DNA of 64,000 nucleotides from Obrimoposthia wandeli (lineage: Eukaryota). The notes beneath the pieces were generated by a model that saw only the letters and a list, made by a program, of their open reading frames with translations, was not told the origin of the DNA and ran no database searches. Shown here piece after piece: positions 1,113-38,314 of the stretch (position 1 is the first letter of the stretch; the number at the start of each line of letters is the position of its first letter). Location of the stretch: assembly GCA_977020255.1 (NCBI GenBank), contig CDROCS010005932.1, positions 1 to 64,000 on the forward strand, in the 5' to 3' direction. A program made the position numbers and the translations under genes.

Positions 1113-3476
1113 AGCAGTAGCACAGTGGAGCCAAACGAAGATATCTGAGAGCAATATGAATTCCTGGAAGTTCAAGTAAGATATCATGGGGAATTCCTCT
1201 AGGGCAGTTTAAAAATTGTTCAAACAAACAAAGATGAAACAGTTCATATACCAATTTGACTAAAGCAGTAGATCACAGTTCTGGTGAAGAGAATGACTTA
1301 TGAACCATCAATAGAATATGATTTAATATAAGTTTTAGCGAGATTATGTGGATACCAGACTACAAATAAAAAAGCTTAATCACAGCGATTACACATTCGC
1401 AAGTCAACTGGGACGGAACGAACGAGCCAACCTCAATGGAAGTCAAAACAAGGAATAAATGGCTGATGTATTCATCGAGAACGACATGTTGTTGACGAAT
1501 CGACGAAAACGGAGGTTGGGCTGAAATGGCGATCGCTACGCTAAAACCATTGTGGAAATGAATGAAGACGATGACGGTTCAATGTCATGAGAATCGCCAA
1601 AGAGAAAATAAACACACCGTCCGAAAGAAAGAAAACAACTGCAACCAAATATGTCCAACGATAATGATGATGATGCTAGTAATGTTTATGGGAATGCAAC
1701 AGGCACTGATTGAAGGCACCAAAGATGGGACAAAAGAGCCATCCATTCAGGCTAAAGTTTTATGTTTGGAAATCACACCAACCGCCACAAACCATGAGGT
1801 TTTTCCGAGAGACGTGCACGCATTTCGAACAGAACAATAGAAACAGACAAGAAGCACTACAAACCTGATGTAAAGTTGGGGGATATTAAACAGTCACGAG
1901 AGTAGGACAACGATGGCCCTTGATGGATCTTGTGACGGAGGAACAAAAACGCATGGAACCAAAGTAAATAGTAGAGTTAGTAATGACGTAACTTATCAGA
2001 CGAATTAAAAAACATGACCGCTAATTTTGATAAAAGACACAACGAAATGATGAAGTATCCGGAATGTGGAAATGACAGATCAGTAATGGCAATAGAAGAA
2101 GGATCAGATATTTATTAAAAAGAGAAAAACGCAAAAGGATGTGGAAATGACTGTTAGTACTAAGAACCATCCTGGAATAGTTTTATTCAGAGAATTAATA
2201 GCAATTAGCAGAAACCAAGCTAAAACCCAGGAGGTGGTAAGCTATTAATACACATATTTTAATAATAAATTGATTTTTATTATCATAAAGGACTGATGCA
2301 AATGGAACAGTTATATCGGATGACATCGAGAGAGATTGCCAGCCAAACAAAGAGATCAAGAATAAAGTTAGCATTAGCTATTACGAACTAGACATGGTAG
2401 CACCATTATTACCCTTAGATGAAGGTATTTATAAAACCATGGGAGAAGCATTACATACTTGCTAAGCGAAAGTGGAAGTACAGTTTAAACAACAAACCGA
2501 TGTAATGGAGTGAAATCGGCAGTAACGCATAATTTAAAAGAACTTTTGTTGAACCAATCACGAATGATACTTCCAAAAGACACTCCAACCAAATCAGCTG
2601 TCAATATAATGGGCACCTGAATATCAGATGACGAATGATCTATGGATAACCCTACCTGAATCGAAAGTCAAATTGAAACTCCAGATGATAAAATGACGAA
2701 TCTAAAGGAAAACAAATTCAGCAGAAATATGAAAATGCAGGTTTGTACTACGAAAAAGACTTAAAAGCGGCCTGGAAACGAAATAATGTTTCCAGTAAAG
2801 CGGCCAGAGTACCATGAGATGGTACATCGCATTGACACCAGAGCTGATATGCGAATTTCGATATGTTATTGTCGCCAAGTCATTTGTGGAAGCAGTACAT
2901 CAAACACTTAGAAAGATGGGGAAATTCTTTGTTTTGTGCACAGTTATTTCAGGTATCATAGGTATTTATGAATATAAATTAAATTGTGCAGTGTAATTGA
3001 GCCTGTGTTGTCTACGTATAGCTATAAGCAGGATAACCTGAATCACCTGCAAACTTATAATTGATGTTTCCCATTTTAGCGAAATATCTAATGCAATCAT
3101 CATCACGAGAACGAGCGCTGGTGAGCCCTCAAAGCGAGCAACATCAAACGAGAACCATGATAATGAGAACCAAGAAACTATCATACTACAACGACGATGA
3201 TAACGATAGCCCAGAGAATATTCAAAGAGAATCAGAAAACCAAGCAAAGATTCCTGCTTACCGGTATTGCTAAATAAGTGCTAAACCTATATCCAATGAA
3301 GGAACTAAAGGAAGAGAAGGAAAAAGTTCAAGAGAGGCATTTTAATGATAAGATGGCCTAAAGTGAATCAAGGTGAGATTCCAAGCAGAGAAAAAGACAA
3401 AAGATAATTCCAGCTTGAAGTCTAGGATATCCAATGAGAATCCAAACGCTCCATCACAAGTAGCAGTAACACATCG

Positions 3477-3680
3477 AACGGAGAGGAATATCTTGCCGAA
3501 GTTGATACTGATCTGTATCAGTACTGAGTAAAGAAATCTTATTATCAAAGAATTGTTAAGAGAAGTATGCCCTAGAAAAACAGACATTTGTTAACGTAAA
3601 TGGTACAGATGTAGTGTCATCAGAAGGAACACTGAAAATGTTCTGTTAAATATTTCATTTTGAAGAGCATTGCAGTTAAA
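3477..3680 (+). pseudogene. Upstream retropepsin-like (aspartic protease) domain remnant
   Basis: Restoring 1 nt after gtt gat act (3501-3509) gives NGEEYLAEVDT[G]SVSVLSKE. Downstream, FVNVNGTDVVSSEGTLKMF resembles the flap VSVNGDPVKVTGILPCTF of the second protease. Confidence 0.5.
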
Positions 3681-4386
3681 TGTCAGAATATTCACAGATT
3701 GTAGTCCAGTCGAATGATGGATGTATATTTGATGTTTGAAGCTGAATAATTATATTACCAAACCAACAAGAGTTTTAAAGAACGACAGTTCAGTGAGAGA
3801 TAAAATGTTGAGAGGACCTAGTAGTCGAAAAGGAAAATAATTATGTTCCGTATATGTAAAATCCGTACCAAGACAGGAAACAGGAAGCGCCAGTAAAGTC
3901 GATACTTCACTACAAAGAGAAACTACGGACCACAAGCTATGACGAGGGAGGAAAATAACATATGTGAATCTGTCGAAAAGATCCCTGAGAATCGGTAGTA
4001 AATAAACGAAGATCACTTGAACCGTACTATTCAAAAGAAATGTCACGTAAATGGCGAGAACAGGTTTACAAATGTTAAACACGACAAATAGTTATGGTTC
4101 TGAGGAAGTAGTACGATGCGTATGGTGCAGAGTAAGTTTAGAAAGTGGGAAAACAATGAAAACCCAATGAAACGTCATAAAGAGATGCACCAAATTGTCC
4201 ATTTCTCTGAAACTGAAAACTTCAAACGTACCAGAAATTCAAATGGGGAAAGCACCATCTGATTTCGACAACAGTGACGAGATTCCAGAAGGAGAATCAG
4301 CTCTAAAAGTAGGCAAAGTGATAACAAATAGCCGAATTGAAGATATATTCGAAGTAATGCGAGAAGTAAACGAATGTGACGAACAA

Positions 4387-4570
4387 TATCGAGAAGTAAC
4401 TTTCAAAGATCCTAGACTTAAAAAAATTGGCAAAAAAATAACTTTTTGCTATAAAAAAGGATGGTAAAGACGTCATTAAATGCCACAAGTGTAAAAAAGA
4501 ACGATTTATTGACAGATATACTCTTGAGTTATCTAAGAAAACTTTACATCATGAATTTTGCGAATTTTGT
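4387..4570 (+). pseudogene. BIR-like zinc-binding domain within the polyprotein (frameshifted)
   Basis: Reconstructed with copy B (~34047-34230): YREVTF...LKKLAKKxLFAIKKDGKDVIKCHKC-x18-H-x6-C. This matches the BIR pattern RxxTF...LAxxGF...DxVxCxxC...H-x6-C. Confidence 0.65.
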
Positions 4571-4865
4571 ACTTTTAAAAACAAAATAAAGCAAAAAGAA
4601 CAGAAAACCGAATGTATAATCGAATACCAAATCACACGGAAAGAGATTTTGGCTCAACAAGACACACCGGTAGTGTCATTCGTGAGAAGACTATATACAA
4701 AAAGAAGCAGAAAGAATCAGAGATTTGGTAGAATTAAAAATAAAAACTACGCGAAATGGATACGGATCAATTTTTTGAATTACTAAAAGATAAAGATGAC
4801 AGTACAATTGAAACAAAAGAGAAAGAGTACATAAACGAACTAGAATACGTACTAGAAGATCCAAC

Positions 4866-4990
4866 AGTGCAGTTTGCATGGTCAATAAAATAGAAGTTGC
4901 CTTTTTACTCATGCGGACATGTAAGAACATAAAGTCGGAGATGCGAAGGAAATGGTATCATGTCCGATTTGTAGAAGGATAATAGATCGA
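4866..4990 (+). pseudogene. IAP-type C3HC4 RING finger within the polyprotein
   Basis: Copy B reads xAVCMVNKVEVAFLPCGHVKTCRRCANEMVTCPICR (34521-34628). Copy A is the same motif with indels. Confidence 0.8.
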
Positions 4991-5099
4991 CAAGTGAGAA
5001 ATATTAGATTTCACTATCCAAACAAAGGAAGTGGACCGGGACAGAATTTAATAATTCAATAAATACAATATACCATATGGGAAATATAAATGGAGTTAA

Positions 5100-5420
5100 T
5101 ACAGCGACCAGCAGCTATCATCAGAGTAAATAATTTAAGAGTAAAAGCCTTAATTGATACAGAAAGGTGCTGTAGCTTCGATAGTAAGTGAAGATTGTTT
5201 GACAGAGGAACAGAAACGAACAATGACAGAACCAGATGAATTATTGGTATCAGTCAATGGAGACCCTGTAAAAGTGACGGGAATATTACCATGTACATTT
5301 ATAATTGGACGTAATACGATCACTATACCAGTTAGAATCATGAAAGTATGTCCTAAACCTACAATTTTAGGAATGGATATACTATCACAACTCAAAGGAA
5401 TAAGTATTGATTTACAAGAT
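5100..5420 (+). pseudogene. pol: Pol aspartic protease
   Basis: IRVNNLRVKALIDT + GAVASIVSE with a 4-nt insertion in the DTG codons, and later ILGMDIL. Copy B retains ALIDTG at 34804-34812. Confidence 0.85.
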
Positions 5421-5656
5421 CCAAGATTGAAGGATAGCACATCAAACAGACAAATAAACCAAATTGATGTAATTATAGAAAATCCTATAAAAATCGGTAA
5501 AAGATCACAATTTCTCATTCAAGGTCACACATTATCAGAAGATAAAGGACCAGTTGTGTTCGAACCATCACGAAATTTCATAGATAAATACGGAATTATC
5601 AGTTGTGAGTACAGTATGGGCGTCTGATTGAAAACCACAAAATACCAGTTAGACTG

Positions 5657-7165
5657 ATGAATACAACCAACAATGACATCCTGTTATACAGAGGAATGAG
5701 GTTGGGAAAGATAGCACAGATGAAGAATCCCACTGTGTGTGCTATGAAACTCGATAAAGACACGAATGATTACGAAGAAATAGTAATCCAATCAGAAAGA
5801 CTGACAACCAGAGAAAAGAAACAATTACTCGATTTAATACATAGATTTCCAAAGGTAATTGCCAAAAATCCGTATGACATAGGAGAAACACCTGTCATAA
5901 AACACACAATACCGCTGACAGAAGACAAAGTAGTCAGAAGAAGACCATATCGAGTACCATTACAGTTACAAGACGAAGTCAAAAGCCAGATCGAAGATAT
6001 GTTCAAAACAGGAGTAATTAGACCGAGTTTTTCACCATTCTCAGCACCTGTGGTGTTGGTAAAAAAGAAGGATGGAAAAATGAGATTCTGTATAGATTTC
6101 AGAGAACTGAACAAGATCACAAGAAAAGATGTTTATCCATTACCTAGAATCGAAGAGATGCTCGATAAATTGGGTAATTCAGATTATTTTACATTGATTT
6201 GCAGAGTGGATACTGGCAAATCGAGATAGAGGAAGAGGATAAACACAAACAGCCTTTTCCTGCGGAGATGGATTGTACGAATGCGAAAAAATGCCATTCG
6301 ACTGACAGGAGCCCCAGCAACATTTCAGCGTTGCATGAATTTTGTACTGCATCGTGTGAAACACGATGGTTTATATCGATGACATAATAATATTTTCGAA
6401 GACGTTCGAAGAACATTTAAAAAATCTTGAAGTTGTATTTAAAAGACTGGAAAACGCTAAATTAAAGTTAAACCTACAAAATGCGAATGGGCTAAAGAGC
6501 GAGTAACATTTTTAGGACATATAGTATCGAAAGAAGGTATTCGACCTGATCCAGCAAAGATCGAGAAAGTAAAAGCGCATTTAGCGCCAAAGACTGTTAA
6601 AGAAATACAGAGTTTTTTAGGTCTTGCGAACTATTATAGACGATTTGTTGAACATTTTTCAGATATAGCAACACCATTGAGAAAGTTGACGAGGAAAGAT
6701 GAGAAGTTCATATGAGGAAATGAAGCACAACAAGCGTTCGAACCTCTAAAAGAAAGACTGATAAAAGCACCAATATTAGCGTTTCCAGATATAAACCGAC
6801 AATTCATACTAATGACAGATGGGCAAGTAACTATGCTGTAGGAGCAGTATTGGGGACAAGAGTATGGCGAAGGAAGAGAACACGTCATCGTGTATGCGAG
6901 TAGAGGATTAAACAGAGCCGAAAGAGGATACTATGTTATTGAAAAGGAATGTCTAGCCATAGTATACTCATGTAGACAGTACAGACACTACTTGCTAGGA
7001 AAAAAAGTATTCCTGTATACAGATCACAAACCACTACAGTTCTTGTATAAACATAGAGACGAGATGAGTAGATTAAACAGATGGTTTCTGAAATTGGCCG
7101 AATTTGATCTAGAAATCCGTTATAAAACCGGAAAGTCGAATGACAACGCAGATTGTTTGTCGTGA
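5657..7165 (+). pseudogene. pol: Reverse transcriptase and RNase H (frameshifted, with stops)
   Basis: SPFSAPVVLVKKKDGKMRFCIDFRELN, YPLPRI, SGYWQI, YIDD, TFLGHIVS, YASRGL, EKECLAIV and TDHKPL: typical Ty3/Gypsy RT-RH. Confidence 0.95.
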
Positions 7166-7399
7166 TTGACAAATGTAGACGAGAAAGGAAACATAATTCT
7201 AGAAGAAGAACAAGATGAAACCTACGACCAAAAAGGAGAAGCAAATCTACTATCGATTTTATAAAGACGGGTAAAATAGACAAAGAAATCATCAAGGAAC
7301 AGAAAGAAGATGAAGAACTGAGTCTAATCACAGAACTGTTAGTGAAAGGAGATCTAAACGATGAAATGACGAAAAAATACTCGATAAAAAGAAGGAATC

Positions 7400-8600
7400 T
7401 TGTATATTGTCAACAATATAGGAAAGATAGTAGTAGTAATTCCGAAGTCATTGAAAACAGCAGTGATGATCCAGTACCACGATGGAAGACTGGGAGGACA
7501 TATGTCAGGGACGAAAGACAATAGCCAGAATCAAAGAGAAGTACCATTGGGATGGTGGAAGATGACATAAAACAATGGTGTAAACAATGTAAAGTATGTT
7601 TAACCAGAAAAGACACCGCCGGAACTCGTACTAAAGTTCCACTGAAACCGATGCCAGTTCCTTTGGCACCAATGGAATTCACAGCGATGGATATATTGGG
7701 ACCATTGAGAGAATCGAGTAAAGGAAACAAGTACGTCATAGTATTTACGGACTACATGACGAGATGGGTAGAAACATATCCCATGCAAAACCCCAAGGCT
7801 GAAACAATAGCGCAGATCTTAGTGGAAGAGATAAGATTTTGATACGGAGTGCCTAGAAAGTTATTAATGGATCAAGGCAAGAACTTCACTGAAGAAGTAA
7901 TAAAAGCAGTATCGAAGATATTTGGAATCATGAAGTTACAAACGTCACCATATCACCCACAAACCTATGGTCTAGTATAGAGGATTAATAAAACTTTATG
8001 TATGATGGTACAATCTTATTGCTCCGATAAGCAAGAAGATTGGGATAAATATTTACCTTCATGTTTATATGCTTACAGGAATTCAGTTCGAGAGGCGACG
8101 GTCACACACCATTCTATCTGATGTATCTCAGACAGAACAATATGTCAATAGATCTGGAGTGGACCGAACCAACATCTCAGTATCTAGAAACTGAACAATA
8201 CATTGTCGTTAGGAAAGAAAGATTACAAGATGCTTGGACTAAAGCAGGATTGAAACTGAAATTCAATCAAGAAGGTTACAAGGAACAATATGACAAAAAG
8301 GCAAAACCACATGAATTTAGAGTCGGAGATTAAGTGATGATATTTTACCCAGTCATCGAACCAGGTCTATCGTTTAAACTTCATAGACCATACAAAGGGC
8401 CATACAAGGTGATACAGACAACCTCAACGAACTTGAAAGTAATCAACGAGGAGAACCGGAACAAGGAACCAATGATTGTACATGCAAATCGATGTAAACT
8501 GGTACTGAATAAAGATAACGCGTCACGATATGAGTTAAGATCACAGAAACTGAAGCCGAATACCAATACCATTAAACTTACACGAATGGTAAGTGATTGA
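7400..8600 (+). pseudogene. pol: Integrase with GPY/F C-terminus (decayed)
   Basis: HDGRLGGH...CKQCKVC zinc motif, AMDILGP, LLMDQGKNF, SPYHPQTYG; catalytic Glu codon mutated to TAG; RPYKGPYKV and VHANRCK. Confidence 0.95.
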
Positions 8601-8615
8601 AACTACATAAATACG

Positions 8616-9734: not shown

Positions 9735-10123
9735 TTCAGACAGACATACCAGAATACCCTTCGAGCGAGTCTAGTCAAGACAGCGAACCTGAAAGTAGCG
9801 ATCCAGAGTCAACAGAATCCGAAGATAACATAATAGAGCGATTCGGAAGAACCATGGAGGTTGAATTCGCTAAAGAGAGTAGAAAAAGACGAAACATAGA
9901 ATTCGTGAAACAAAATATACAAGAAAGACGAATTAAATCCGCAGAAGAGACCGAGTCGGAAGAGGAACCAACAAAAAAACAGACATCAGAGACAAAGATG
10001 AATATCTCTCCAGCGATACGAATGCTGAGAGGAAAGAAACTGGCGAAATTATCCATCATCAACGAACAACTAGAGAAGAGATTAGAAAGACTAAAACTTG
10101 AAGAGTCAGAATTAATGCCACCA

Positions 10124-10530
10124 ATGAGTGAGATCATTCCAGGTAAGTTATACCTCGGAAATGTGGAAGATGCAACAGACGAAAAGAAACTGTTGGAACA
10201 AGGGATAACATACGTGATCAATGTTACAATGAATCACAAATCGCAATATCAGACAATCAGAGCTATGACATTAAGAGTAAAAGACTCAATGGAGGCTAAT
10301 CTTCTCGAATGGTTCGTAGAAACAAACGAGATACTTCACAGAGAACTCCAAAACCAAGGAAAAGTGTGGTACATTGTCAGAAAGGAATCTCCCGATCAGC
10401 AACCCTAGTATTAGCGTATCTAATAAAGACTAGACGAATGCAGGTACTAGAAGCGCTGAAATACCTAAAGGAAAGACGAAGTATCGCGAACCCAAATCTT
10501 AACTTTTTGGGACAATTGTCAAATTACCAA
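10124..10530 (+). pseudogene. Dual-specificity protein phosphatase domain (1-nt deletion before the active site)
   Basis: SEIIPGKLYLGN...GITYVINVT...VHCQKGISRSATLVLAYLI...ALKYLKERRSIANPNLNFLGQL. HCx2GxSRS loop at 10372-10398. Copy B has KVLVHCLKGISRS in one frame (41061-41096). Confidence 0.9.
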
Positions 10531-10641
10531 CTCATGTTGCAAGAACAGAGACGGATGGACGACATCCCTGAGGATCCAAAGGAAAAGAATTTCCTCCAAG
10601 CACTATCGTTTACCGGTTTATTCTTAGCCGGAGTCGACAAA

Positions 10642-11049
10642 ATTACTCAGATAATGCCGAAAGTATTTCTATGTCATCCAGGAGATATAGATACTGCTGG
10701 ATTAAAGTTCCACAGTATCAACCCAGTAATTAACATTGTTGAAGTCGGAAATGAGATAATCAGCCTGCGTCAAAATACTGAAGATGACACAACTCGATAC
10801 ATACATGCTTCCAATCGGGAGATAAACGATGCACAACAACATCTGATGAAACTGACTCAAACCATCCAAGCCGAAGTCACAGAAGGAAACGGCGTTCTGA
10901 TATATCAGAAAAAAGGTACAATGTTAGCGCCTACCATAGGTGTATCCTTGTTGGTAGAGTACCATGGTCATACACCAGAAGAAGCGATGGTTTATATCAA
11001 ACAGAATAGACCAGATACGGAATTCAACCATTACTTGTTCGAGAAATAG
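10642..11049 (+). CDS. Second DUSP-fold domain lacking the catalytic Cys/Arg (pseudophosphatase)
   Basis: ITQIMPKVFL...GNGVLIYQKKGTMLAPTIGVSLLVEYHGHTPEEAMVYIKQNRP aligns to DUSP, with HCxxGxSRS replaced by YQKKGTMLA. Same motif in copy B. Confidence 0.65.
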   Translation: MTQIMPKVFLCHPGDIDTAGLKFHSINPVINIVEVGNEIISLRQNTEDDTTRYIHASNREINDAQQHLMKLTQTIQAEVTEGNGVLIYQKKGTMLAPTIGVSLLVEYHGHTPEEAMVYIKQNRPDTEFNHYLFEK

Positions 11050-11105
11050 AGAAATACTCCGAAAAGAGGAAGCAACAACGAGAAACAAATGAAGCTACAA
11101 CAACA

Positions 11106-13856
11106 GTGCCCAGCTATCAATACCAAAGATTGCTAGCACTAGGCTTGTTAAGTTGTCTAATGCCGATAACGGGAGCACAAGAGATAGGCTCCAACAACGG
11201 AAATAGTTCATGGTTCAAAGAAATCAACAACTACATCATGCAGTACAATACACCGACACTGATGATGCTATTAGTGTTGATAGGACTAATCGATGTTTGG
11301 CTTATCCGAAAATGTTTCCAATCTATGAGAACCGATAGAAAATGTTTCCAGTTTGTGAAAATGAAGAGACCAAATGAACCAACGAACCAAGTACTTGTGT
11401 ATCTAGACGAAAGGATCGAAGAAAACATAGTGAATGAAGCGATATTTTATCCACAAAACAGAATACTGAATCAATTCCGAATAGATTACGAAGCTGACCG
11501 ACAGCGCACACTTGACCGAATATCAACAACATTCGCCGGATGCAGGCGAAGAAAACGAATCGTAAAGGAAATACAAAAAGATGTGGATACAAAAGGTACG
11601 ACGTACATAATCGACGGCGATGTCATCAAAACACGTGAGTATGGAAGTAAGAGAGTGATAATTGAAACGATTGAAGGACATAAAACATGCTTGTCCGCCA
11701 AAATTGGATTCGGGAAATTGATGATACAAGGTAAACAGGTACAGTTGATTATCGGGAAAACTGGAATTGAAGAAATGTCAAAGCAACGACAGACAAACCA
11801 GACAAAATGACCTAACCAGAAACAGATGTTGCTCAAACGAATAATAATCAAAACCCTTTGCAAAAGGACAATCACGGCCCTGTGCACTGTTACACAAGGA
11901 TCGATCTACGGAGTAGTAATTGGATTGGTACTACAAGCCATTCCAACCAGTAAAGCTGAATTGATGACGCTACCTGGATATAATTTACATCTGAGAAATC
12001 TAGACAACACCCTAGAAATAATCAAGACGTCTTATAGTAAAGCCGTGATGATCATGTGTGTAAAAGGATGTCCAGGACGAATATGTGTAATCCCAGCAAC
12101 CGAAATGATAACACTAAATAATCATTATGGAATGAGTGTTGTCACATGTGAAGGATACACATTTGGACAAACTAAAATAGTACTTCTCAGTGACATGTCC
12201 AACCAAAGTACACATAAATTTAAAATATTAACCATCAAGAGTAAAGGGATACCAGCAATACGTTATGGTATTCTAGAATTGGTTAATCCAATACTAGCAT
12301 TGACTATCGGAGTCATAATAATAATATTGCTCATTTTGTTTTGTTGTACAAAGATAGAGTCGAGATCGAAAAAGAAACGTCATGATCTCGCAAGACAAGC
12401 AGGTCAAATGAATTTACAAAAATTCAACACAATGATACCAAGACCAGCATTCCTAAATGAACCAGCACCAAAGTATCAGCCAACGATATACGAACATATC
12501 GAGGAAAGACAATACTACATGAGTAACTTGAGTTATCCTAGAGAAGTTCTTGAGATTAGAAAGCAGACGATCATAGGAATCATGCTGATCATGCAAATCA
12601 CCACGACCGAGGCTGGTTATGAGATCATGATCAGTAAATGGAGACAAGATACGATACGGGCGTTATCCATAAAAATACCTCTAATAAAAACAAATTACGT
12701 AATAGGCATTCACCTACAAACATCAGCAACCGAAAATGTCGATCAGAAATTGTATGTCATTCGCCAGATCAAAATAAAGATTGACCAACATAAACTTTAT
12801 TACCGACTGATATTATTCTACCATGAAAAGGTATTATACCTACGAATAACAATATCAAAAAGGAAACGGATTATTCAAATTATCCGAACAAAGTCATTAA
12901 TATTACCTAACGACGAGCGCATCTGGAAAGTTGTCGACAGGATTATGATCACAGGTAGACGACGTAAAACCGTATGGAATTCCGTTAGAATATTCTTCAG
13001 ATTGTTAGAAACTGACCAGGTAACAGTGGCGTGTCCCAATCCAGATGGTGGAATCCGATTCGAAATTCAAAACCAAATGTTAGTACCACATTTTGATGCA
13101 GAATGTCTATGTAACCGAATTCCCAGCAATGCTAAAGAGACCACTACCATAATCATGGTAATAACAGATGAAATATTCTACATAACTCTAAGATACCAGA
13201 CACGTCGATTTCGTGGACTCGGTATAAGTATTAAACCCAGGAAAATCATTCCCGGAAAACCAATCAAAGTCATAAAAAAGGAAAAGGTGAAAGGAAGTAA
13301 ACGCCATTCCAAAAAACCAATCATAGTCAAAAAGAAGGCAAAGGTAAACGGAAGTAAACGCCATTTCGAGAAGCCAAAAGTAGTCATAACAAAGGCAGAA
13401 GTGAAAGGAAAAGAGCTCGATCTCAGAAATCAAAGTACAATTATTAAGAGTACAAGAGTGAAGGGAACGATTCCACTAGATCCCAAATATCATTTCCAAT
13501 CTCAATTAATAATACCTGTTAGACCGAAAACAAAATATCCAAATCCGCGAGTTATTAGAAAATCGGACATAATACATGGAAACCGATCAACACCAATGGA
13601 AACGCCATTCAAACCGACAAACAACAAAATGAAGTATGATTACCAATCATCAGACAGCGGAATAACAGCGGTCAATGCTCTAATTGGAATGGCAGTAGTG
13701 TCAACAGCAGTAGTTCTATTGACAGTCGTGTGCGTGAAAGGCAGTCAGGTATGCCCAAGAATACGACGGAAATGCGAAGGACTGCGATGCTGTAACACAC
13801 CCACAATGGAGGAAGTGGAATTGCGACCCTTACCTCCGCCTCCCATCAAGACATGA
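11106..13856 (+). CDS. C-terminal membrane-protein region of the polyprotein (one in-frame TGA at 11808)
   Basis: ORFs 11106-11810 and 11826-13856 share a frame, and the TGA is CGA in copy B. Three signal-peptide-like and three TM-like hydrophobic segments. Confidence 0.7.
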
Positions 13857-13981
13857 TAAGTCAGAGGAGGTTGTAGATAAATTAGTGTGTAAAAATATGT
13901 AGAAATATCTAGAAGCGATTGTACAAATAAGTAGAAATATGTAAAACCCATGTAGAAATTAATTGTCATCATGTATTTAGA

Positions 13982-14281
13982 ATGTCCGAAGAATGCCCAA
14001 TATGTTTGGAAGATTTAACCGAACGAAGAACAAGACCCGATACCTGCAACCACTTACACCACGAGGAATGTTTGTCAAAATGGATCAGAACCTATGGAGA
14101 GACTCCCTATCCGACATACCCTCGTTGCCCTGTATGCAGAAGACAATTCACAAAGTTAATCAAAATAGAACCCAACCAAGAGGATGTAGATGTACAGGTG
14201 ATATTATGTTGGAAGAATTTGAGAGAGTGTTGGTGTTATTACTGTTTATCAGAACGACAAAATTCGACCACTTTTGTGTAA
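13982..14281 (+). CDS. Small RING-H2 protein 1 (99 aa)
   Basis: CPIC...CNHLHHEEC..W...CPVC plus C-terminal CWKNLRECWCYYC. Confidence 0.85.
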   Translation: MSEECPICLEDLTERRTRPDTCNHLHHEECLSKWIRTYGETPYPTYPRCPVCRRQFTKLIKIEPNQEDVDVQVILCWKNLRECWCYYCLSERQNSTTFV

Positions 14282-14341
14282 ACATCGCACAACCACCAGC
14301 CCTCAATCGAGCCCAATTTCAACATCAACCCTCTCACAGTA

Positions 14342-14647
14342 ATGTCTGGAGAATGTTCAATCTGCTACGAGAACATCGTGGACCTCTATACCAAACCCAA
14401 CAACTGTGACCACCAGTTCCATGTCGAATACCTCGAGACGTGGATCCCAATCGCAAACAACAACAATCCCCTCGACTACCCAAACTGCCCGATGTGCAGA
14501 GCAACCTTCTCGGTGCACTATGTCTACAACCGGGACAGCCTCCAAGCAGTGGTACCCATTGTACACTGCTGGAAAAACATATGCGACTGCTGGTGTTCGT
14601 TCTGCGTAGAGGAGCGACGCACAGGCCAGCCCAACAGCCAGCAGTAA
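14342..14647 (+). CDS. Small RING-H2 protein 2 (101 aa)
   Basis: CSIC...CDHQFHVEY(C in copy B)..W...CPMC plus HCWKNICDCWCSFC. Confidence 0.85.
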   Translation: MSGECSICYENIVDLYTKPNNCDHQFHVEYLETWIPIANNNNPLDYPNCPMCRATFSVHYVYNRDSLQAVVPIVHCWKNICDCWCSFCVEERRTGQPNSQQ

Positions 14648-14997
14648 CCGAAGGTAACTTTTGACTTAAAACGTGACATCATGAACTACCCTGTGTATCG
14701 CACACCGCGATAAAATAACTACCATAATTGTAATCATAATTGTATAATCTTGCGAAACTGTAAAATGACCATTACCATTTTTATGTATGTTGTTTATTTG
14801 AAATTGTAATTATTAGACTGAAACTCCAAAAGACAATTTTTTATGCTTAGTATGAATGTGAAAAACATGCCTAAAATCAAGACAAAATTCGGTAGGATTA
14901 AAATACTAAGGCTTATAATATTGAAATTAAAATATTAAATTCATAAATTAATATTAAACCCAATTGAACCCCAAATTAAAGAGTAATTATTGCGCAG

Positions 14998-15528
14998 ATG
15001 CTTTGCTCAATTAGCCTCGAGAAAATCTGGGCAGAGTCGGCATCCCCTGCCGGGTGCCGGCACAAATTCCACGAATCCTGCCTCTATTTGTGGGCCAAGG
15101 CTCGACCCTCCGGCCACATCACATGCCCGATGTGCCGGGCACCCTTTTCCGAGTGGACGCTCCAGTGCCGTGGACGACCCAAGGGCACCCACTCATCCAC
15201 CAGTTGCATTGGTGGCGAGCACTGTCAGTGCTCCGTGTGCCTCGCGCGCCGTCGCAACGCACAATTGGGCATCCGCGAACGATGGCGGTCTAGCCGCGAT
15301 AACCGCTCATGGCAACAGGCCAGACGCTTATGGATGGAGAATTATGAGCTGTACGGGCAGGATTTCGATTTATTTATCGAGAGCTCACACCTGACCCCGG
15401 ACCAGCAGGTGGACCTACTCCTCGGGGACATTCCGTCCTTCCCAGACCTACCCCTGGAGCAGGTCATGCTCTATTTGGACAGTCAGAACCAGCCAACAGT
15501 AACAATTGACCTCACCAGCAACAACTGA
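14998..15528 (+). CDS. RING-H2 protein 3 (176 aa)
   Basis: CSIS (second Cys changed)...CRHKFHESC..W...CPMC, then CIGGEHCQCSVC and an acidic tail. Confidence 0.75.
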   Translation: MLCSISLEKIWAESASPAGCRHKFHESCLYLWAKARPSGHITCPMCRAPFSEWTLQCRGRPKGTHSSTSCIGGEHCQCSVCLARRRNAQLGIRERWRSSRDNRSWQQARRLWMENYELYGQDFDLFIESSHLTPDQQVDLLLGDIPSFPDLPLEQVMLYLDSQNQPTVTIDLTSNN

Positions 15529-16408
15529 TAAAACATTACAATTCATCCTTTCCGCTCCTTTCCTTCTCTAAAACACTTGTGTATAATATATGTAGTGAAT
15601 ATTTGTGACCTTGTCCGATTTATTCACTATCTTGGCAGTAGTACCGAATTTTGTTGAATATTAGGCATGTTGATGAGTTTTGAATGATTGAAATTAGTGG
15701 GGATGATTTTAAAAACAGAAGCTCAGAAGCTAGTAAATTAAAATCGATACGTTCCGGGGACGTAACTTTTTTAGAACCCCCGAGATATGTTAGGTTTAGG
15801 AATTGATAAAAATAGAATAATTAATCGAATTTATAGTGAAATAAGAATCCTTGAAAGCAAGGTTATAAATTAAATAAAATTGAATATTAGAATTAAATTA
15901 TTGAGATTGGGAGGTAAATTGAATATTAAGGACCACGAAGGTCGTGTGTAGTGCGCTGTATGTATGGGAGGTTAGATTATTATTAAGGGCCCCAAAAAAC
16001 AAGAATCAATTAAGAAAACGAAAATCTAATTAAGAAGATTATTGCGAAAAGTTTATTAAGAAAAAGGACGAAGAAGAAAATCAAATTAGTCGTACATTAG
16101 AAACCCATTAGCAGTCTAGCAGCTACGACAACAGAAACCCATTAGCAGTCTGGGAGCCAGCAGTAGCACTTAGCTAAATTGATTTCTTCTGTAGAAAGTG
16201 AGCAGCAGAAAAGCAAACATCCGCAACCAATTCCATTAAGCCGTCAGTGGGAGCCAGCAGCTAATAGTCTGTCGAGTCGACTGATCCATTAGGACAAGCA
16301 CAGGACGTCGAGAAAGAGACCAGCCGTAGTTTTCCAATTCCAGCGATTTCCGTGCGAGGTAAACACATTAAAGTAAAGTGTTTTCAATTATTCCATTAGG
16401 AAACCAAA

Positions 16409-16415
16409 TATAAAA
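16409..16415 (+). promoter_or_regulatory. TATA box in the LTR
   Basis: TATAAAA about 620 bp into the LTR. Confidence 0.45.
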
Positions 16416-17142
16416 GCAGACGCACTCCGATCGCAGAGGCAGTAGCTAACGAAAAAATACTCGTCGAGAAAATCCGAGCAGGAATAAAATTCGAGAATCA
16501 GAGTTACAGTAGTTAGAGTCCAAGAAAGAATTTAGAGGAAAGGTCGCAAATTGTTGTATCGGACAGCAGACGAACACAGCAGCAGCACAAGATCTCGCAG
16601 ATCCTTCTAGCAATCACCAAGCTCGAACGCGGAACTAGGACTCAAAGGACTCTCGAACACCGACGGATAGACCAAAGGCGATAGATCTCCAAACGAGACC
16701 GGACGGACGAGATCTTCGGAGTAAGCCGAAGTCTGCCGATATTGGAGGAAGGTCAATAACGCGATTTCGTGGAAATTATTTTACATCCTTTGCAGTTCGA
16801 CACGGAAAGAAGAACAGCGAGCAAGAAGCCGAAACGGAGCTATTCGGAACCAGGAAGTTGTCTCCGTGGAAACAGAGGTATCGGACTAATCCAGCACCAC
16901 GCCAAACTCCACAAAAGGTCCGTAACAGAACAAGACAATTCTAGCAACCGAATAAACCGCCTCGTACAAAACAATCCTAGCGACTGTATCAATCCCACAA
17001 AAGGACCGATCTCAGAGCGAGCATTACGGAAGACAATCGGAAGGTCTGCCAGAGCAAGCCTACGCATAGAATTATTCGGAGAGAGGTAAGAAGCGAACCG
17101 AATAATTGTGAAGTGAATTAAAGTAAAAGAAAAAACGTTACT

Positions 17143-18470
17143 GTGAATTTTGAATCTGAACTAGTAAAGTAATTGCCGTGAATTTTGAAGTATTGAAATA
17201 ATTTCTGTGAATTTTGAATCTGAACTAGTAAAGTAATTGCCGTGAATTTTGAAGTATTGAAATAATTTCTGTGAATTTTGAATCTGAACTAGTAAAGTAA
17301 TTGACGTGAATTTTGAAGTATTGAAATAATTTCTGTGAATTTTGAATCTGAACTAGTAAAGTAATTGCCGTGAATTTTGAAGTATTGAAATAATTTCTGT
17401 GAATTTTGAATCTGAACTAGTAAAGTAATTGCCGTGAATTTTGAAGTATTGAAATAATTTCTGTGAATTTTGAATCTGAACTAGTAAAGTAATTGACGTG
17501 AATTTTGAAGTATTGAAATAATTTCTGTGAATTTTGAATCTGAACTAGTAAAGTAATTGCCGTGAATTTTGAAGTATTGAAATAATTTCTGTGAATTTTG
17601 AATCTGAACTAGTAAAGTAATTGACGTGAATTTTGAAGTATTGAAATAATTTCTGTGAATTTTGAATCTGAACTAGTAAAGTAATTGCCGTGAATTTTGA
17701 AGTATTGAAATAATTTCTGTGAATTTTGAATCTGAACTAGTAAAATAATTGCCGTGAATTTTGAAGTATTGAAATAATTTCTGTGAATTTTGAATCTGAA
17801 CTAGTAAAGTAATTGACGTGAATTTTGAAGTATTGAAATAATTTCTGTGAATTTTGAATCTGAACTAGTAAAGTAATTGCCGTGAATTTTGAAGTATTGA
17901 AATAATTTCTGTGAATTTTGAATCTGAACTAGTAAAATAATTGCCGTGAATTTTGAAGTATTGAAATAATTTCTGTGAATTTTGAATCTGAACTAGTAAA
18001 GTAATTGCCGTGAATTTTGAAGTATTGAAATAATTTCTGTGAATTTTGAATCTGAACTAGTAAAGTAATTGCCGTGAATTTTGAAGTATTGAAATAATTT
18101 CTGTGAATTTTGAATCTGAACTAGTAAAGTAATTGCCGTGAATTTTGAAGTATTGAAATAATTTCTGTGAATTTTGAATCTGAACTAGTAAAGTAATTGC
18201 CGTGAATTTTGAAGTATTGAAATAATTTCTGTGAATTTTGAATCTGAACTAGTAAAGTAATTGCCGTGAATTTTGAAGTATTGAAATAATTTCTGTGAAT
18301 TTTGAATCTGAACTAGTAAAGTAATTGCCGTGAATTTTGAAGTATTGAAATAATTTCTGTGAATTTTGAATCTGAACTAGTAAAGTAATTGCCGTGAATT
18401 TTGAAGTATTGAAATAATTTCTGTGAATTTTAAATCTGAACTAGTAAAGTAATTTCCGTGAATTTTAAAG
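17143..18470 (+). repeat. 64-bp tandem array, about 20.7 near-identical copies
   Basis: Unit gtgaattttgaatctgaactagtaaagtaattgcc + gtgaattttgaagtattgaaataatttct; unit starts at 17143, 17207 ... 18423. Confidence 0.98.
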
Positions 18471-19129
18471 TCCGCAATTGAAATCGGATTGTTCTGCATT
18501 TTACCTAAATTAGAGCAACAACTCTACTAAACTTTATCCCGTGTTAGAGCAACAGCTCGGTAAACTACTGGTATTTTAGATCAACGCTCTGTAAACTTGT
18601 CGCAATTTTAGAGTAAAGACTCTAGCGCCAACCAACCCTAAACCTAAAATCGATACGTGGTTCATCCCTACTTGTGTAGAGACTTACGGAAGTATTAGGA
18701 ATTTTACTGTAACTTTTTAGAAATACGTACGTAAACGTATTGCTTTGTGTTAGTCTAGTGTGTTAATAAATAAACGATTTCCTACATTAGAAAGCATTGT
18801 TCTAAACCCTTCAGATTAAGAGACATCGGAAAACAAACACCTTCAGATAAGAATTGAGACAGGCAACTATAACATTAAGTAGGCCACGACCATCCTTAAG
18901 TCCTGCTTCTATAAGAACTCACGTTGGGGCCCTCCACACTAAAGAGGATCTATAAGTTTCATATAGAAACCCCAACACTATCTTAGACGATGATGGCTTT
19001 TTGAGAAGTAATACAAGAATTATCCATGCTGAATTTTTCAGTTATGATGTACAATTCTCGATTATTGTGTGCGAGAAGAGCAGTTTAGCAAGGTTGATTA
19101 TAAAAGAAATCAACAAGAAGTTGAAGCAC

Positions 19130-29365: not shown

Positions 29366-30100
<735 letters not shown>

Positions 30101-33357: not shown

Positions 33358-35041
33358 TGACTTCCTCGCGAAATATTCGAATAGCGCAGACGTTCAAGGA
33401 TGGAACGATAGAGGAAAATGTGTCCGCGTACAGGCGCATTTTACCGGACTAGCACTCGAAGTGTATAAACATTTTACAGAAGCAGAACGTGCAAATTGGG
33501 AAACATTAGAAAATGCTTTTATAGGAAAATTGGTATTGGGAGATTTAGCAAAAGAGAATAAACGAATATTGAGAGAACAGGACTGAAACATGACGAGAGC
33601 GTGAATGGATATGCGTATGTTTTGAGAACCTAGGCAGCGCAAGCGCATCCAAGAAAAATATTGAGAAATCAGGCAGATGAACCTGTAGCTGAAAATGTAC
33701 AATTAGCGGAAGATAGTTTTGTTAGATATATTCAGAGGACTGACAAAAGACATTAAAGTATTATAGGCAGTATCGGATTCAAATGATTTTGACAACGCCG
33801 TTGGGAAAAAAAATTGGAGAAACAATGATAACCCAACGAAACGTCATTAACTGGAAGCACCAACGTGTCCATTCACCCTAAAATTAAACTGCAAATGAAC
33901 CAGAAATGCAAACAGGAAAAGCACCTAATTTTGACAGTGACAAGATTTCAGAAGAAGGAACAGCCCAAATAAAAAAGCGTTGTAATAAAAAACAGTCGAG
34001 GATATATTCGAAGTAATGCGAGAAATAAACGAATGCAACGAACAGTATCGAGAAGTAACTTTTGAGGATCAACGACTTAAAAAATTGGCAAAAAAAGAGA
34101 CTTTTTGCTATAAAGAAGTATGGTAAAGACGTAATTAAATGCCACAATTGCAAAAAGGAACGACTTATTGATAGATATACTGTTGAGCTACCTAAGAAAC
34201 TTTACATGACGAATTTTGTAATTTTTGTAATTTAAAAAACAAAAAGAACCAAAAGAACCGAAAACAGAATGTATAGTCGAATACCAAATCACACAAAAAG
34301 AGATTTTGGATCAACAAGACACACCAGTAGTGTCATTCGCGAGAATGTTTTATCCAAAAGAATAAGACAGGATCAGAGAATTGGTAGAATTAAAAATAAA
34401 AACTACGCGAGATGGATACGGATCAATTTTTGAATTATTACGAGATAAAATGACAGTACAATTAAACAAGAACAAAAAGAGTACATAAATGAACTAGAAT
34501 ACATGCTGGGAGATCCAGAATATGCAGTTTGCATGGTCAACAAAGTAGAAGTTGCCTTTTTACCATGTGGACACGTGAAAACATGTCGGAGGTGTGCTAA
34601 CGAAATGGTAACATGTCCGATTTGTAGAATGATAATAGATTGACAAATGAGGAATATCAGATTTCACTATCCAAAAAAAATAAATTAGACCGACGAAATG
34701 TAACAATTCGATAGATACAGTATACCATATGGAAAATATAAATACAGCACAGCGACCCGCAGCTATCATTAGAGTCAATAATTTAAAAATAAAAGCCTTA
34801 ATTGACACAGGCACAGTAGCATCGATAGTGAGTTAATATTGTTTGACAGAAGAACAGAAACAAACAATGTCAGAACCAGATGAATTCTTGGTATCGGTCT
34901 ACAGAGACCCTATAAAAGTGACGGGAGTATTACCATGTACATTTGTAATATGACGTAATACGTAACTGGATACATTAGGACTATTGAGAAAATCAAGTAA
35001 ATGTAATAAGTATGTAATAGTATTTACGGACTACATGACGA
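33358..35041 (+). mobile_element. Giant Gypsy copy B, 5' fragment (Gag capsid, BIR, RING, protease, integrase scrap)
   Basis: FLAKY...QGWND...HFTGLALEVY...WETLENAF...ESVNGYAYVL (Gag capsid). 33806-34960 is homologous to 4140-5290, and 34961-35041 to 7690-7762. Confidence 0.85.
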
Positions 35042-35410
35042 TTTTTTTTTAAAATTAGTAATTAAAAAATTTTGTAAATAAATTAAATCAAATTTAAATT
35101 AGATTGAAAATTAGAGATTAGAAGTTAAAAAATAGTCTACTATTAGAATAGTTTGCAGGTTTAAAATTAATTTGTTTTATGATGCCACGTAGGTAGTTGT
35201 TTACAACAAAAAAAAAGAAGAAAAGGTATGGGATCTCGATTTAGTGTTATGCCTTGAAATGGTCGTGATTTAATTATTATTCTTTCTAGAGTTGCGTTGT
35301 ATTCCTTCTAATTGTGCTGTGTAAAGTTTTGTGAAAGAAATTGAAAATATAAAAGAAGGTTTACTTTAGTGATTTGATTTATTTTTAGAGATGACGCCAA
35401 CACGCGAACA

Positions 35411-35451
35411 TGGTAGCAGAGCGTGGTTGGGTTATGGGCCCCCCAGCCACG
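35411..35451 (+). promoter_or_regulatory. Primer-binding site complementary to tRNA-iMet, with a second complementary box
   Basis: TGGTAGCAGAGCGTGGTT right after the LTR, then GGGTTATGGGCCC...AGCCACG. Confidence 0.8.
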
Positions 35452-36297
35452 AAAAAGAAGTACCTCAATGTATAGAGCCTTGGCTCTCAATTAGTGTTTT
35501 ACTCCATAAAATTGAAAAACTTACAAAAATATTTGGAGAATTTATTAAAAAGGAAAATTAGTATAACGCTAACGGAATGCCTGATTGATACAATGTATCA
35601 GTCACGCTACCGGGGATTCATATGCAATCGATGGACCAGGATATATTCTACGAGGTTCAAGACTTTGTAACCCGTATCGAATCTACGTTTCCAGATATTT
35701 ATGGTTCTCTTTTCCATTTCAAAGATAGCCTTATCTATGGTACTGCCCAAAAAGTAATGAAATTGTTGGACAATGCTCTGAAAAGACGAACTAGGAATGA
35801 TATTTCAAACGACCAAGGAATTATTGAATAATCGGAATCACTGTCATTTTACTTCTTCAAATAACAAATTATGATGTAAAAGGTAAATTTGTAAATTGCA
35901 TGGATTGCTCTAATGGTGGACTGTTTTTTAAAATTTTAAAATATAACGTGGGTAGGGACATCCCCAGATATAACCCCAACATTTTTAAAATTTATGATAT
36001 TCATGATTACGAATTTAACAATTTATTTAGGTACTATTACAAATTGCAGCTACGAATTGTTTTAGTAGGAAATGCGTTAGTAGCATATCCAATAACATTT
36101 AATATGCTTGTTGAAGTTAAGATAATGATGAAACCAGACACTCTTGTAAAATTTGGTCCTATGGGACAGCCTACACCATTAATGGAAGGAGTACTAATGG
36201 GTGAATTAAAAAGTTTTTTAGGGGTGTTAGAGAAAGGAAATGTAAGGTTCTTTTAATTATATTAATTGATTTAGAGTTTAGTTTAGTCCTAAATAAG

Positions 36298-37750
36298 ATG
36301 ACATCTCGAGTATTGGAGCTGATAGGCATTGGGAACTCTGCAAGGATCCCTAGCAGCCCTAGAGACCAGACGAACCTGAAAAAATTATCGATAGAGGAAT
36401 TAGAAGATGCAAGATGTGCATTAATAAGAGAAGATCAGAAATTAAATTATCCAGATGAATTAAAAGCATTGAATGAAAGACAATCGATTCCACAGAAGAG
36501 TATAATTTCCAGCTTAATCCAATATTAGATGAGGAAGGAGTGATAAGAAGTAATAGCCGAATTATAAATACAAAATTATTACCATCAAGTACGAGATTTC
36601 CTATCATTTTATCACAACATAGTTGGGTCACGTGGCTGATAATAAGATATTATCATAAGAAACGGAAACATATAGCAGGAGTAAATCATTTATTTAGTGA
36701 TCTAAGTAGATAATTCTGGGTAGAAAAAGCAAGAGTGGTCATACAAGAGTATCAAAGAAAATTTTTAGAGTGTAAGCGTCGTGCGGGAAAAGGAGTTATA
36801 ATGAAAATGGCTCACTTAGCACGAATGAGATTTCTAAGTCCATTAAAAGCCTTTGATAAAGTGGGAGTTGACTTCACAGGGCCGTATCTAAGAATGCAAG
36901 GCCGTGGCAAAATTCGACAGAAACGGTACCTTTGTTTGTTCATGTGCCTACAAACTCGAGCAGTGCATCTCGAATTAGCATGGGGTTTGGATACAGATGC
37001 ATTTCTACGAGCATTCAAAAGATTTATGGGAAGGCGGGGAAAACTACAAATCGTGTTGTCAGATAATGGGACAAATTTTAAAGAAGCAGTTGGGATGGTG
37101 AATGAGATAAAATTGGATAATTATTTGCTGCGGGCTGAGATTGAAAGAGAGTATATTCGTTGGATATTTAGTCCACCAGCGACACCTCATTTTGGAGGAG
37201 AATTCGGGAGTTTATCAAGAGCACTAAAAAAGCGATAGGTATTGTACTGCTGAAGGCAGATTTGACTGATGAAGAATTGATGACGGTATTCGTAGAAGTA
37301 GAAGACCTGCTAAACTCATGACCAATAACATTCCAATCAGCAGACAGTAAAGAAGAATTACCGTTAAGGCCAAAAGATTTTATGATGAGTGGACGAGAAG
37401 AACAGTTGGAAAATGAAACTATGTTGACAGGAGAAAGGCTTCAGCATCGATGGTGTAGGATTCAGGAGATTGTAAGTTATATGTGGAAGAGATGGATGAT
37501 TGAGATGGTACCTACTTAGATTAGAAAATCAAAATGGAGGAGTACAGAAAAACCGATACAGGTAGTACAGTTGGTGTGGGTATTAGATGGAAATAACGAG
37601 CAAGGTGTATAGCTGCTTGGATGAATAAAGAGTTTAAGGCGAGATAAAGCAGGAGAGATGCGAAGCTGCATAGTAGTGTTAGGTGGAAAGGAACTTGTAC
37701 AGCCGGTAGCGATGTTGTGTCTGCTAGAAGTAGAAGGAAGAGAAGAATGA
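36298..37750 (+). pseudogene. BEL/Pao RNaseH-connection and integrase remnant
   Basis: VGVDFTGP, KRYLCLFMCLQTRAVHLEL, SDNGTNF, WIFSPPATPHFGG. Confidence 0.9.
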
Positions 37751-37916
37751 AGATACAGGAGAGGTCGGATTTATAGATAAGACTGAGCTAGGTGGTTTTG
37801 GGGACCAGTTCATAAGTCAGACGCTGCTTCGGACAAAGGTTTAAAATGACAGTTGTTAGGTCATCCTTTGTAGAGTTGACAAACCAGGAGATCGGGTTTG
37901 GTCAAGGGGAGTGGTC

Positions 37917-38314
37917 TGTTCTGACGTAGTATTTAAGATTTTTACCAAAAATTTTAGTAATTAAAGAATTTTGTAAATAAATTAAATCAAATTTAAATTA
38001 GATTAAAAATTAGAGATGAAAAGTTAAAAAATAGTCTATTATTAGAATAGTTTTGAATTTGCAGGTTTAAAATTAATTTGTTTTATGATGCCACGTAGGT
38101 AGTTGTTTACAACAAAAAAAGAAGAAAAGGTATGGGATCTCGATTTAGTGTTATGCCTTGAAATGGTCGTGATTTAATTATTATTCTTTCTAGAGTTGCG
38201 TTGTATTCCTTCTAATTGTGCTGTGTAAAGTTTTGTGAAAGAAATTGAAAATATAAAAGAAGGTTTACTTTAGTGATTTGATTTATTTTTAGAGATGACG
38301 CCAACACGTAAACA
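37917..38314 (+). repeat. BEL/Pao 3' LTR (398 bp)
   Basis: TGTT...AACA termini; near-identical to 35042-35410. Confidence 0.9.

Follow-up and report, generated by a model that had tools for sequence, protein, structure and literature searches.

A three-unit membrane cassette at the C-terminal end of a giant Gag-Env-Pol polyprotein in Obrimoposthia wandeli

The stretch 11106..13856 of the window (the whole 64,000-nucleotide piece of Obrimoposthia wandeli DNA analysed here, read on the forward strand) is the C-terminal cassette of a single Gag-Env-Pol polyprotein, encoded by a giant, env-bearing Ty3/gypsy LTR element, and it is under purifying selection. In our estimation the chances are slightly better than even, with a probability of about 0.55, that three accessory type I membrane proteins are freed from this cassette by host signal peptidase acting at internal signals. 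The initial annotation had pictured an independent polyprotein of the flavivirus or bunyavirus kind, an idea that gives way here to the C-terminus of a retroelement Gag-Env-Pol ORF.

The element and its copies

The host element measures about 23 kb, is present in multi-thousand copies and carries a single ORF of about 5,450 residues, the cassette being the final ~920. Domains were assigned by running Pfam on natural open pieces of element copies, with a CCHC Gag knuckle and the Monjiviricetes fusion glycoprotein among the matches, and they follow one another as Gag, gB-type Env, protease, BIR, RING, protease, RT, RNase H, integrase, phosphatase, pseudophosphatase and cassette; the pol order protease-RT-RNase H-integrase is that of a Ty3/gypsy LTR retrotransposon. 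The single copy read at both ends is 23,350 bp long, with TG...CA LTRs and a 4-bp target duplication. Its primer-binding site starts with TGG, 8 nt past the 5' LTR, and presumably fits the 3' end of elongator tRNA-Met. LTR pairs were 95-99.6% identical in three of five copies compared, and the flanks of four copies hold long direct repeats, mostly ~19-21 kb apart.

Env lies in frame between gag and pol, where in other copies PF24664 exceeds the cut-off, reaching 333 bits and aligning along almost all of the model. The recognisable fusogen therefore sits upstream of the cassette, because the element follows the GAG-ENV-POL (Burro-like) errantivirus plan. The parts of the element outside the cassette appear in the window as follows.

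1628..3201 (+): decayed env region of copy A, Monjiviricetes/gB-type, internal signal near 1628-1705 (PF24664 in other copies, mapped to the window)
3471..7960 (+): decayed protease 1, BIR, RING, protease 2, RT, RNase H and integrase of copy A
10148..11037 (+): dual-specificity phosphatase (PF00782; H-C-x5-R at 10372) and a second, motif-less phosphatase-like domain; frameshifted in copy A
13982..15528 (+): three short RING-H2-type ORFs after the polyprotein (13982-14281, 14342-14647 and ~14998-15528)
15788..18977 (+): 3' LTR of copy A, TG...CA, with a 64-bp tandem array
33810..45127 (+): copy B, more decayed, of a second subfamily (~80% identity), cassette at ~41690-44360

The phosphatase has the MAP kinase phosphatases DUSP10/4/1 as its nearest solved chains. 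The second and third short ORFs were recognised as RING by Pfam and the first by eye from its translation; all three sit between the polyprotein stop and the 3' LTR. Some further observations concern the same parts of the element. Two aspartyl-protease domains flank BIR and RING, making an IAP-like unit nested within pol (window 3471-5390). Between integrase and phosphatase, window 8601-9734 encodes about three beta-rich segments of ~110 residues, IPT/TIG-like by eye, for which we obtained no match in Pfam or PHROGs and no self-match by blastp. The tandem array of the 3' LTR, at 17141-18471, comprises 20.8 copies of 64 bp with 98% matches, and the LTRs of other copies hold arrays too, apparently of different periods. 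Copy B is without RT/RNase H and holds at 35055-38315 an insert with integrase and DUF5641 matches, which we take to be Bel/Pao-like, surrounded by ~360-bp direct repeats that are 95.6% alike.

A 501-base probe gave 3,543 first-look candidates in the 1.35-Gb genome, and the 40 scored were 98-100% identical; a copy-B probe gave 2,823 first-look candidates, the other 39 scored lying at 87-90%. First-look candidates for the phosphatase and for env numbered 14,214 and 20,252, figures that are not copy numbers, and every locus inspected, the 30 top-ranking ones for the phosphatase and 30 for env, belonged to this element family. More distant sister families were not found among the inspected loci, so that no deep alignment is possible. 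In a marine metagenome run, 37 low-depth pieces matched window 7600-15600, mostly 90-99% alike and falling in 25 of 30 bins; they are probably host DNA in the sample. Among the sequencing runs listed as containing element sequence there was no RNA run.

The cassette within one open frame

In the window copy, 11106-13856 is not one open frame, for it is interrupted by an in-frame TGA at 11808-11810 that separates 266 codons from 681; nor is it a stand-alone gene, for there is no start codon at 11106 and its frame extends back through the phosphatase domains and pol. Of 60 copies, among them the two in the window, seven have the stop at 11808 and 53 lack it, no stop is common to more than seven, and codon 11106 is Met in none (four are gapped there). 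Breaks in the cassette are scattered over these copies and mostly private to single ones.

Of the 30 nearest copies, 11 have no interruption of the frame between the locus start, which lies within the phosphatase-like domain, and the end of segment 1. Eight copies were also picked from 150 phosphatase matches for their long open frames, a choice that yields no estimate of frequency: integrase, phosphatase and segment 1 lie in one open frame in all eight, and this frame reaches the terminal stop in three and back to env or gag in two. One open frame spans gag, the env signal, BIR, RT and IN, and coordinates give the ORF a length of about 5,450 codons. Since the frame is shared upstream, 11106 is never Met and no stop is widely shared, we regard the cassette as the C-terminal ~920 residues of the polyprotein.

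Layout of the cassette

The cassette is composed of three units, each with a signal-like segment, a predicted lumenal part, a transmembrane (TM) segment and a predicted cytosolic part.

11130..11177 (+): internal signal-like segment 1, h-region 11130-11162, proposed cleavage after 11177
11178..11252 (+): unit 1, short predicted lumenal part of ~25 residues, rich in Trp/Phe/Tyr, with a sequon at 11202 kept in both groups
11253..11306 (+): TM of unit 1, short; it ends with a conserved Asp-x-Trp, and basic residues come next
11313..11840 (+): unit 1 predicted cytosolic domain, 176 codons, containing the window copy's stop at 11808-11810
11898..11957 (+): internal signal-like segment 2, proposed cleavage after 11957
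11958..12284 (+): predicted lumenal domain of unit 2, with 109 residues, 4 Cys and a sequon at 12201; a low-confidence prediction makes it all-beta
12291..12347 (+): TM of unit 2, the strongest hydrophobic segment; Cys-Cys at its end, then a polybasic patch
12354..12554 (+): unit 2 predicted cytosolic tail, with a T-x-Y-x-x-I motif at 12483-12500
12570..12614 (+): internal signal-like segment 3, the weakest, proposed cleavage after 12614
12615..13670 (+): body of unit 3, a basic, beta-rich domain of ~210 residues containing 3 conserved Cys, and after it a Lys-rich stalk of ~140 residues
13677..13736 (+): unit 3 TM
13737..13856 (+): unit 3 basic, Cys-rich tail, Pro-rich end at 13824-13844, terminal stop of the ORF

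Translation of 11010-13856 recovered the three cleavage-like sites of the initial annotation, TGA/QE (ending at 11177), SKA/EL (ending at 11957) and TEA/GY (ending at 12614), together with the three TM segments at 11253-11306, 12291-12347 and 13677-13736, the 109-residue lumenal part of unit 2 with its four Cys and the NQS at 12201, and the very basic unit 3, which has 74 K+R against 28 D+E over 352 residues. The further claim that all of this is conserved in copy B held in part: the six hydrophobic segments are all recognisable in its cassette, yet that cassette is broken by stops and frameshifts, one stop falling within the second signal.

The residues around the proposed sites are largely kept in both subfamilies, which we call groups A and B. 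At site 1, Ala occupies -1 in 28 of 29 group A copies and 21 of the 24 group B copies covered, and Thr occupies -3 in 29/29 and 22/23; at site 2, -1 is Ala in 29/29 and 26/30, with Ser at -3 in group A (27/29) and Gly or Ser in group B (25/30); at site 3, Ala is found at -1 in 26/29 and 23/25, with Thr at -3. The D-x-W at the end of TM1 recurs in 24 of 29 group A copies and in 22 of the 26 group B copies covered, and the Cys-Cys at the end of the unit 2 TM in 29/29 and 24/30. The T-x-Y-x-x-I of the unit 2 tail, which may be an SH2-type site, is present throughout group A (29/29) and in 21 of 26 covered group B copies, while the Pro-rich end of unit 3, presumably a match to the SH3 class I pattern, is kept in 24/27 of group A and only 5/18 covered copies of group B. 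The unit 3 stalk contains a 57-bp repeat at 13256-13410 and sequons at 13428 and 13581.

Selection on the cassette

Selection was measured over 943 codons by pairwise Nei-Gojobori comparison of 29 group A with 30 group B copies, net of within-group divergence, after one copy identical to the window had been dropped and locally misaligned codons masked. Net dN/dS between the subfamilies is 0.34 for the cassette (bootstrap 0.27-0.42, an interval that is optimistic because the copies are related), and 0.79 and 1.25 for its shifted-frame controls. Constraint is strongest in TM1 (0.02, CI 0-0.10), the unit 1 ectodomain (0.08, CI 0.01-0.62) and TM3 (0.09), followed by values of 0.20 for signal 3 and 0.28 for the unit 1 cytosolic domain; the two parts of the unit 3 body give 0.40 and 0.60, the latter for the basic stalk. 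The segment 11841-11957 around signal 2 has a net dN/dS of 1.06 with a very wide CI and carries no purifying signal. The adjoining phosphatase stretch stands at 0.13, with the H-C-x5-R motif of the phosphatase intact, and is followed by the pseudophosphatase.

Topology and the preferred reading

The alternation of signal and stop-transfer segments that had been proposed is supported indirectly by the kept -1/-3 residues, by the positive charge after the TMs and by the lumenal Cys and sequons, and is weakened by the third signal. A small residue at -1 and -3 after a hydrophobic run is common, and alone it is weak evidence. A crude scan of hydrophobicity and charge, performed on one natural open copy, found seven hydrophobic segments in the ~920-residue cassette versus four in the preceding ~4,500 residues, and two of those four are the Env signal and the Env TM. 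Net charge is +2, +4 and +5 after TM1, TM2 and TM3, against 0, 0 and -1 before them. Signal 3 scores -0.65, within the range of two non-membrane segments (-0.30 and -0.92); the seventh hydrophobic segment, which lies within unit 3, has a score of -1.10.

Both subfamilies retain four Cys in unit 2 and three in unit 3. Six sequons are shared by position, and all four predicted-lumenal ones are kept in group B (one of them changed from N-x-S to N-x-T), whereas both predicted-cytosolic ones are lost; this contrast (Fisher p about 0.07 by hand, 6 sites) is suggestive only, because 520 of 889 arbitrary residue pairs (0.58) pass the same retention test. A fifth lumenal sequon falls in a repeat missing from group B. 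The Env part of this ORF carries an internal signal built like those of the cassette, and we infer that the ORF already depends on an internal signal.

According to the three-product reading, the nascent chain would enter the ER at the internal Env signal, return to the cytosol at the Env TM, stay cytosolic through pol and the phosphatases, and then thread the membrane three more times via alternating internal signal and stop-transfer segments, host signal peptidase cutting after each signal and thereby freeing three type I membrane proteins. The first product would have a 25-residue ectodomain, a highly conserved TM and a large cytosolic domain; the second would be a small disulfide-bonded beta glycoprotein whose tail bears the Cys-Cys/polybasic stretch and the tyrosine motif; and the third would be a basic glycoprotein on a Lys-rich stalk. 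Most likely these would be accessory surface or particle proteins acting in attachment, release or the evasion of host signals, beside the phosphatase, IAP-like and RING cargo. The roles of the individual units are guesses, including glycosaminoglycan binding by the basic ectodomain of unit 3. Several points tell against three products, namely the weak signal 3, the short TM1, the segment 11841-11957 with no purifying signal, the Pro-rich end kept in so few group B copies, and a unit 3 whose basicity is unusual in an ectodomain and whose conserved Cys are odd in number.

Alternative readings

In an alternative reading processing would be partial, with signal 3 unused and the unit 3 body serving as a cytosolic RNA-/capsid-binding, tail-anchored domain, or with the whole cassette left uncleaved as a multi-pass tether of the phosphatase. 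The low hydrophobicity of signal 3, the strongly basic character of unit 3 and the frequency with which small -1/-3 residues arise by chance all fit this scenario. However, positive charge and a Cys cluster lie on the C-terminal side of TM3, as suits a cytosolic tail and hence a lumenal unit 3, groups A and B alike retain the two shared sequons and the three Cys of unit 3, and net dN/dS is 0.20 for signal 3; we consider partial processing a real but doubtful possibility. The question of how the cassette is expressed is separate, as the same three products could come mainly from a spliced or subgenomic RNA that places signal 1 near the N-terminus, the cassette still being in frame with pol. The env of errantiviruses needs such an RNA, the downstream RING ORFs here would presumably need one as well, and open copies have an in-frame Met ~45 codons upstream of signal 1. 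Against this, the frame from integrase to signal 1 is unbroken and has no shared stop, although a separately expressed gene would be free to gain one, and this route seems unlikely.

It may also be asked whether the cassette holds a second fusogen, in the form of a FAST/sORF2-like fusogen or class IA viroporin in unit 1 or of a reduced fusion-protein domain in unit 2, which would open an Env-independent cell-to-cell route and would be compatible with three products. Unit 1 does combine a ~25-residue ectodomain with one TM and 5 K/R in the next 15 residues (window copy), the TM-CC-basic stretch of unit 2 matches orthoreovirus p10 below the cut-off (17.1 of 21.4 bits), and the language-model neighbours of unit 2 include C-terminal parts of viral glycoproteins and EFF-AFF (0.79-0.86). 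Nevertheless, unit 1 is without an N-terminal Gly or myristoylation motif and has a cytosolic part of more than 150 residues, the atlas scores of unit 2 lie below 0.9 with low recognition and mixed families and are leads only, and the element already has a full-length Env, which together make a second fusogen decidedly unlikely. Hardly credible, finally, is the notion that the cassette is a functionless, decayed remnant of captured sequence whose hydrophobic runs arose by chance: both window copies are broken and no homologue turned up anywhere searched, but a net dN/dS of 0.34 against shifted frames near 1, scattered breaks and a commonest stop in just 7/60 copies largely refute it.

Searches for relatives and folds

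Pfam assigned none of the three units to a fusion-protein family at a score over its cut-off, in line with the earlier remark that no fusion-protein motif is visible. Since a full Monjiviricetes/gB-type Env sits between gag and pol as well, the env-like main role once offered for the units is unlikely. Word-index searches found no homologue of unit 1, no match to units 2-3 in longer proteins and no match to the post-integrase region in proteins of 3,220-5,000 aa; alignment of unit 2 against metagenome and viral contigs confirmed 0 of 388 and 295 candidates, and PHROGs gave no match to the cassette units. For a eukaryotic element, such negatives are weak. A search of units 2-3 against 1.84 billion representatives returned a single match, a cadherin with a long repeat expansion, which we rejected as spurious.

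Structure prediction returned an all-beta model of unit 2 at pLDDT 44 from 12 sequences, with no match to viral structures at E<=0.001 and PDB-wide matches that cover the TM helix only. Membrane-proximal parts of viral glycoproteins are among its neighbours in the atlas, with scores below 0.9. The front domain of unit 3, modelled as a single sequence, reached pLDDT 35. In the atlas, unit 3 came closest to beta domains, bacterial DUF2264_C and others related to it, with a score of 0.96 that is a lead only, recognition being low and 158 features shared. A four-copy complex prediction for the unit 1 ectodomain and TM scored 0.02, which is uninformative either way.

Comparison with known systems

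An in-frame env between gag and pol has been published for elements of this type (PMC6431247; PMC13524379). The closest parallel in plan is Burro/GYPSM1, giant Gypsy elements of planarians with single ORFs of 4,873 and 5,140 aa and more than 30 kb in length (PMC6431247), as against ~23 kb here. Common to both are the huge ORF, Gag, an in-frame env with similarity to mononegavirus glycoproteins, the BIR and RING cargo, accessory ORFs, tandem repeats and thousands of copies. The Burro account also lists MATH, SUMO-like, BCL2, ankyrin and dUTPase motifs, all obtained by HHpred (PMC6431247), whereas Pfam gave no match to these in five pieces covering most of our ORF. On the other hand, the available part of that account has no phosphatase and no post-integrase membrane cassette, both of which are present here. 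GAG-ENV-POL errantiviruses with an HSV/gB-type Env are described from flatworms, nematodes and bryozoans (PMC13524379), and our element agrees with them in ORF order and Env class, its Env resembling that of S. mediterranea errantivirus 1 by eye only (PMC13524379 supplement). No domains after integrase are described in the available portion of that work, in whose main text the words 'phosphatase', 'BIR' and 'accessory' are absent, and four generic phosphatase motifs were absent from its seven supplements.

For unit 1, the criteria for FAST/sORF2 proteins provide a yardstick, in particular an ectodomain of 10-50 residues and at least 3 K/R in the 15 residues past the TM (bioRxiv 10.1101/2025.03.14.642691). 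Unit 1 agrees with these two, having a small ectodomain, one TM, a polybasic patch and an origin in an LTR retrotransposon. FAST and MDG1-group sORF2 proteins are, in the available part of the same source, free ORFs of 60-210 residues, mostly myristoylated, with a cytoplasmic part below 150 aa and, for sORF2, in env-less elements. Unit 1 departs from three criteria in total: its predicted N-terminus is Gln, with no myristoylation motif, its cytosolic part has 176+ residues, and it is borne on a polyprotein in an element that has an Env. With class IA viroporins it shares the plan of a single TM and a lumenal N-terminus (PMC12197650), as far as its predicted topology goes, and it has the conserved Asp-x-Trp in the TM.

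In alphaviruses, alternating internal signals and stop-transfers in pE2-6K-E1 give several membrane proteins from one ORF (PMC12197650). The cassette is predicted to follow the same principle, but it belongs to an LTR retroelement and comes after a cytosolic pol and phosphatases, unlike the flavi-, bunya- and alphavirus proteins. The structural polyproteins of flaviviruses/HCV and bunyaviruses are likewise processed by signal peptidase at internal signals. We found no class II fusion-protein family match in the units and no relation in sequence or fold to these RNA-virus polyproteins.

The element type is already known, and the apparently undescribed part is limited to the post-integrase phosphatase pair and the membrane cassette. 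The literature searched yielded no description of this pair with a three-unit cassette, though the domain maps of Burro-2/-3/-4 could already show such segments, and the cassette is not described in the available portions of PMC6431247, PMC13524379, PMC13238120, PMC12197650 and bioRxiv 10.1101/2025.03.14.642691.

Significance and other features of the window

Known Ty3/gypsy elements have one Env, or one small FAST-like protein instead. If a conserved set of three more membrane proteins is indeed cleaved off the end of Pol, retroelements would have a new route to surface functions. Large DNA viruses pair their gB-type fusogens with partner glycoproteins; the gB-type Envs of retroelements may need partners too, and the cassette units would be concrete candidates. 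Having no detectable relatives, the units may represent new protein families. A bolder and quite tentative extension of the three-product reading would have one ORF cross the ER membrane four times over, giving a gB-type Env and three unrelated new membrane proteins for a multi-protein envelope, with an IAP-like protein, a MAP-kinase-phosphatase-like protein and three RING proteins at its side. The units would then be a viroporin- or FAST-like protein, a small glycoprotein with a signalling tail and a glycosaminoglycan-binding attachment protein, and the whole would amount to an infectious-type invertebrate retroelement closer to a complex DNA or RNA virus than to a retrovirus.

The element family makes up a large part of the host genome and would confound the annotation of host phosphatases, IAPs and RING ligases. 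Elsewhere in the window, a 613-codon open frame at 23397-25238 matches PF13843 (E 1e-62), which we take to be a piggyBac-type transposase, a C2H2 zinc-finger array at 29366-30103 is probably an exon of a host gene, and a 31/62-bp tandem repeat occupies 53547-53778.
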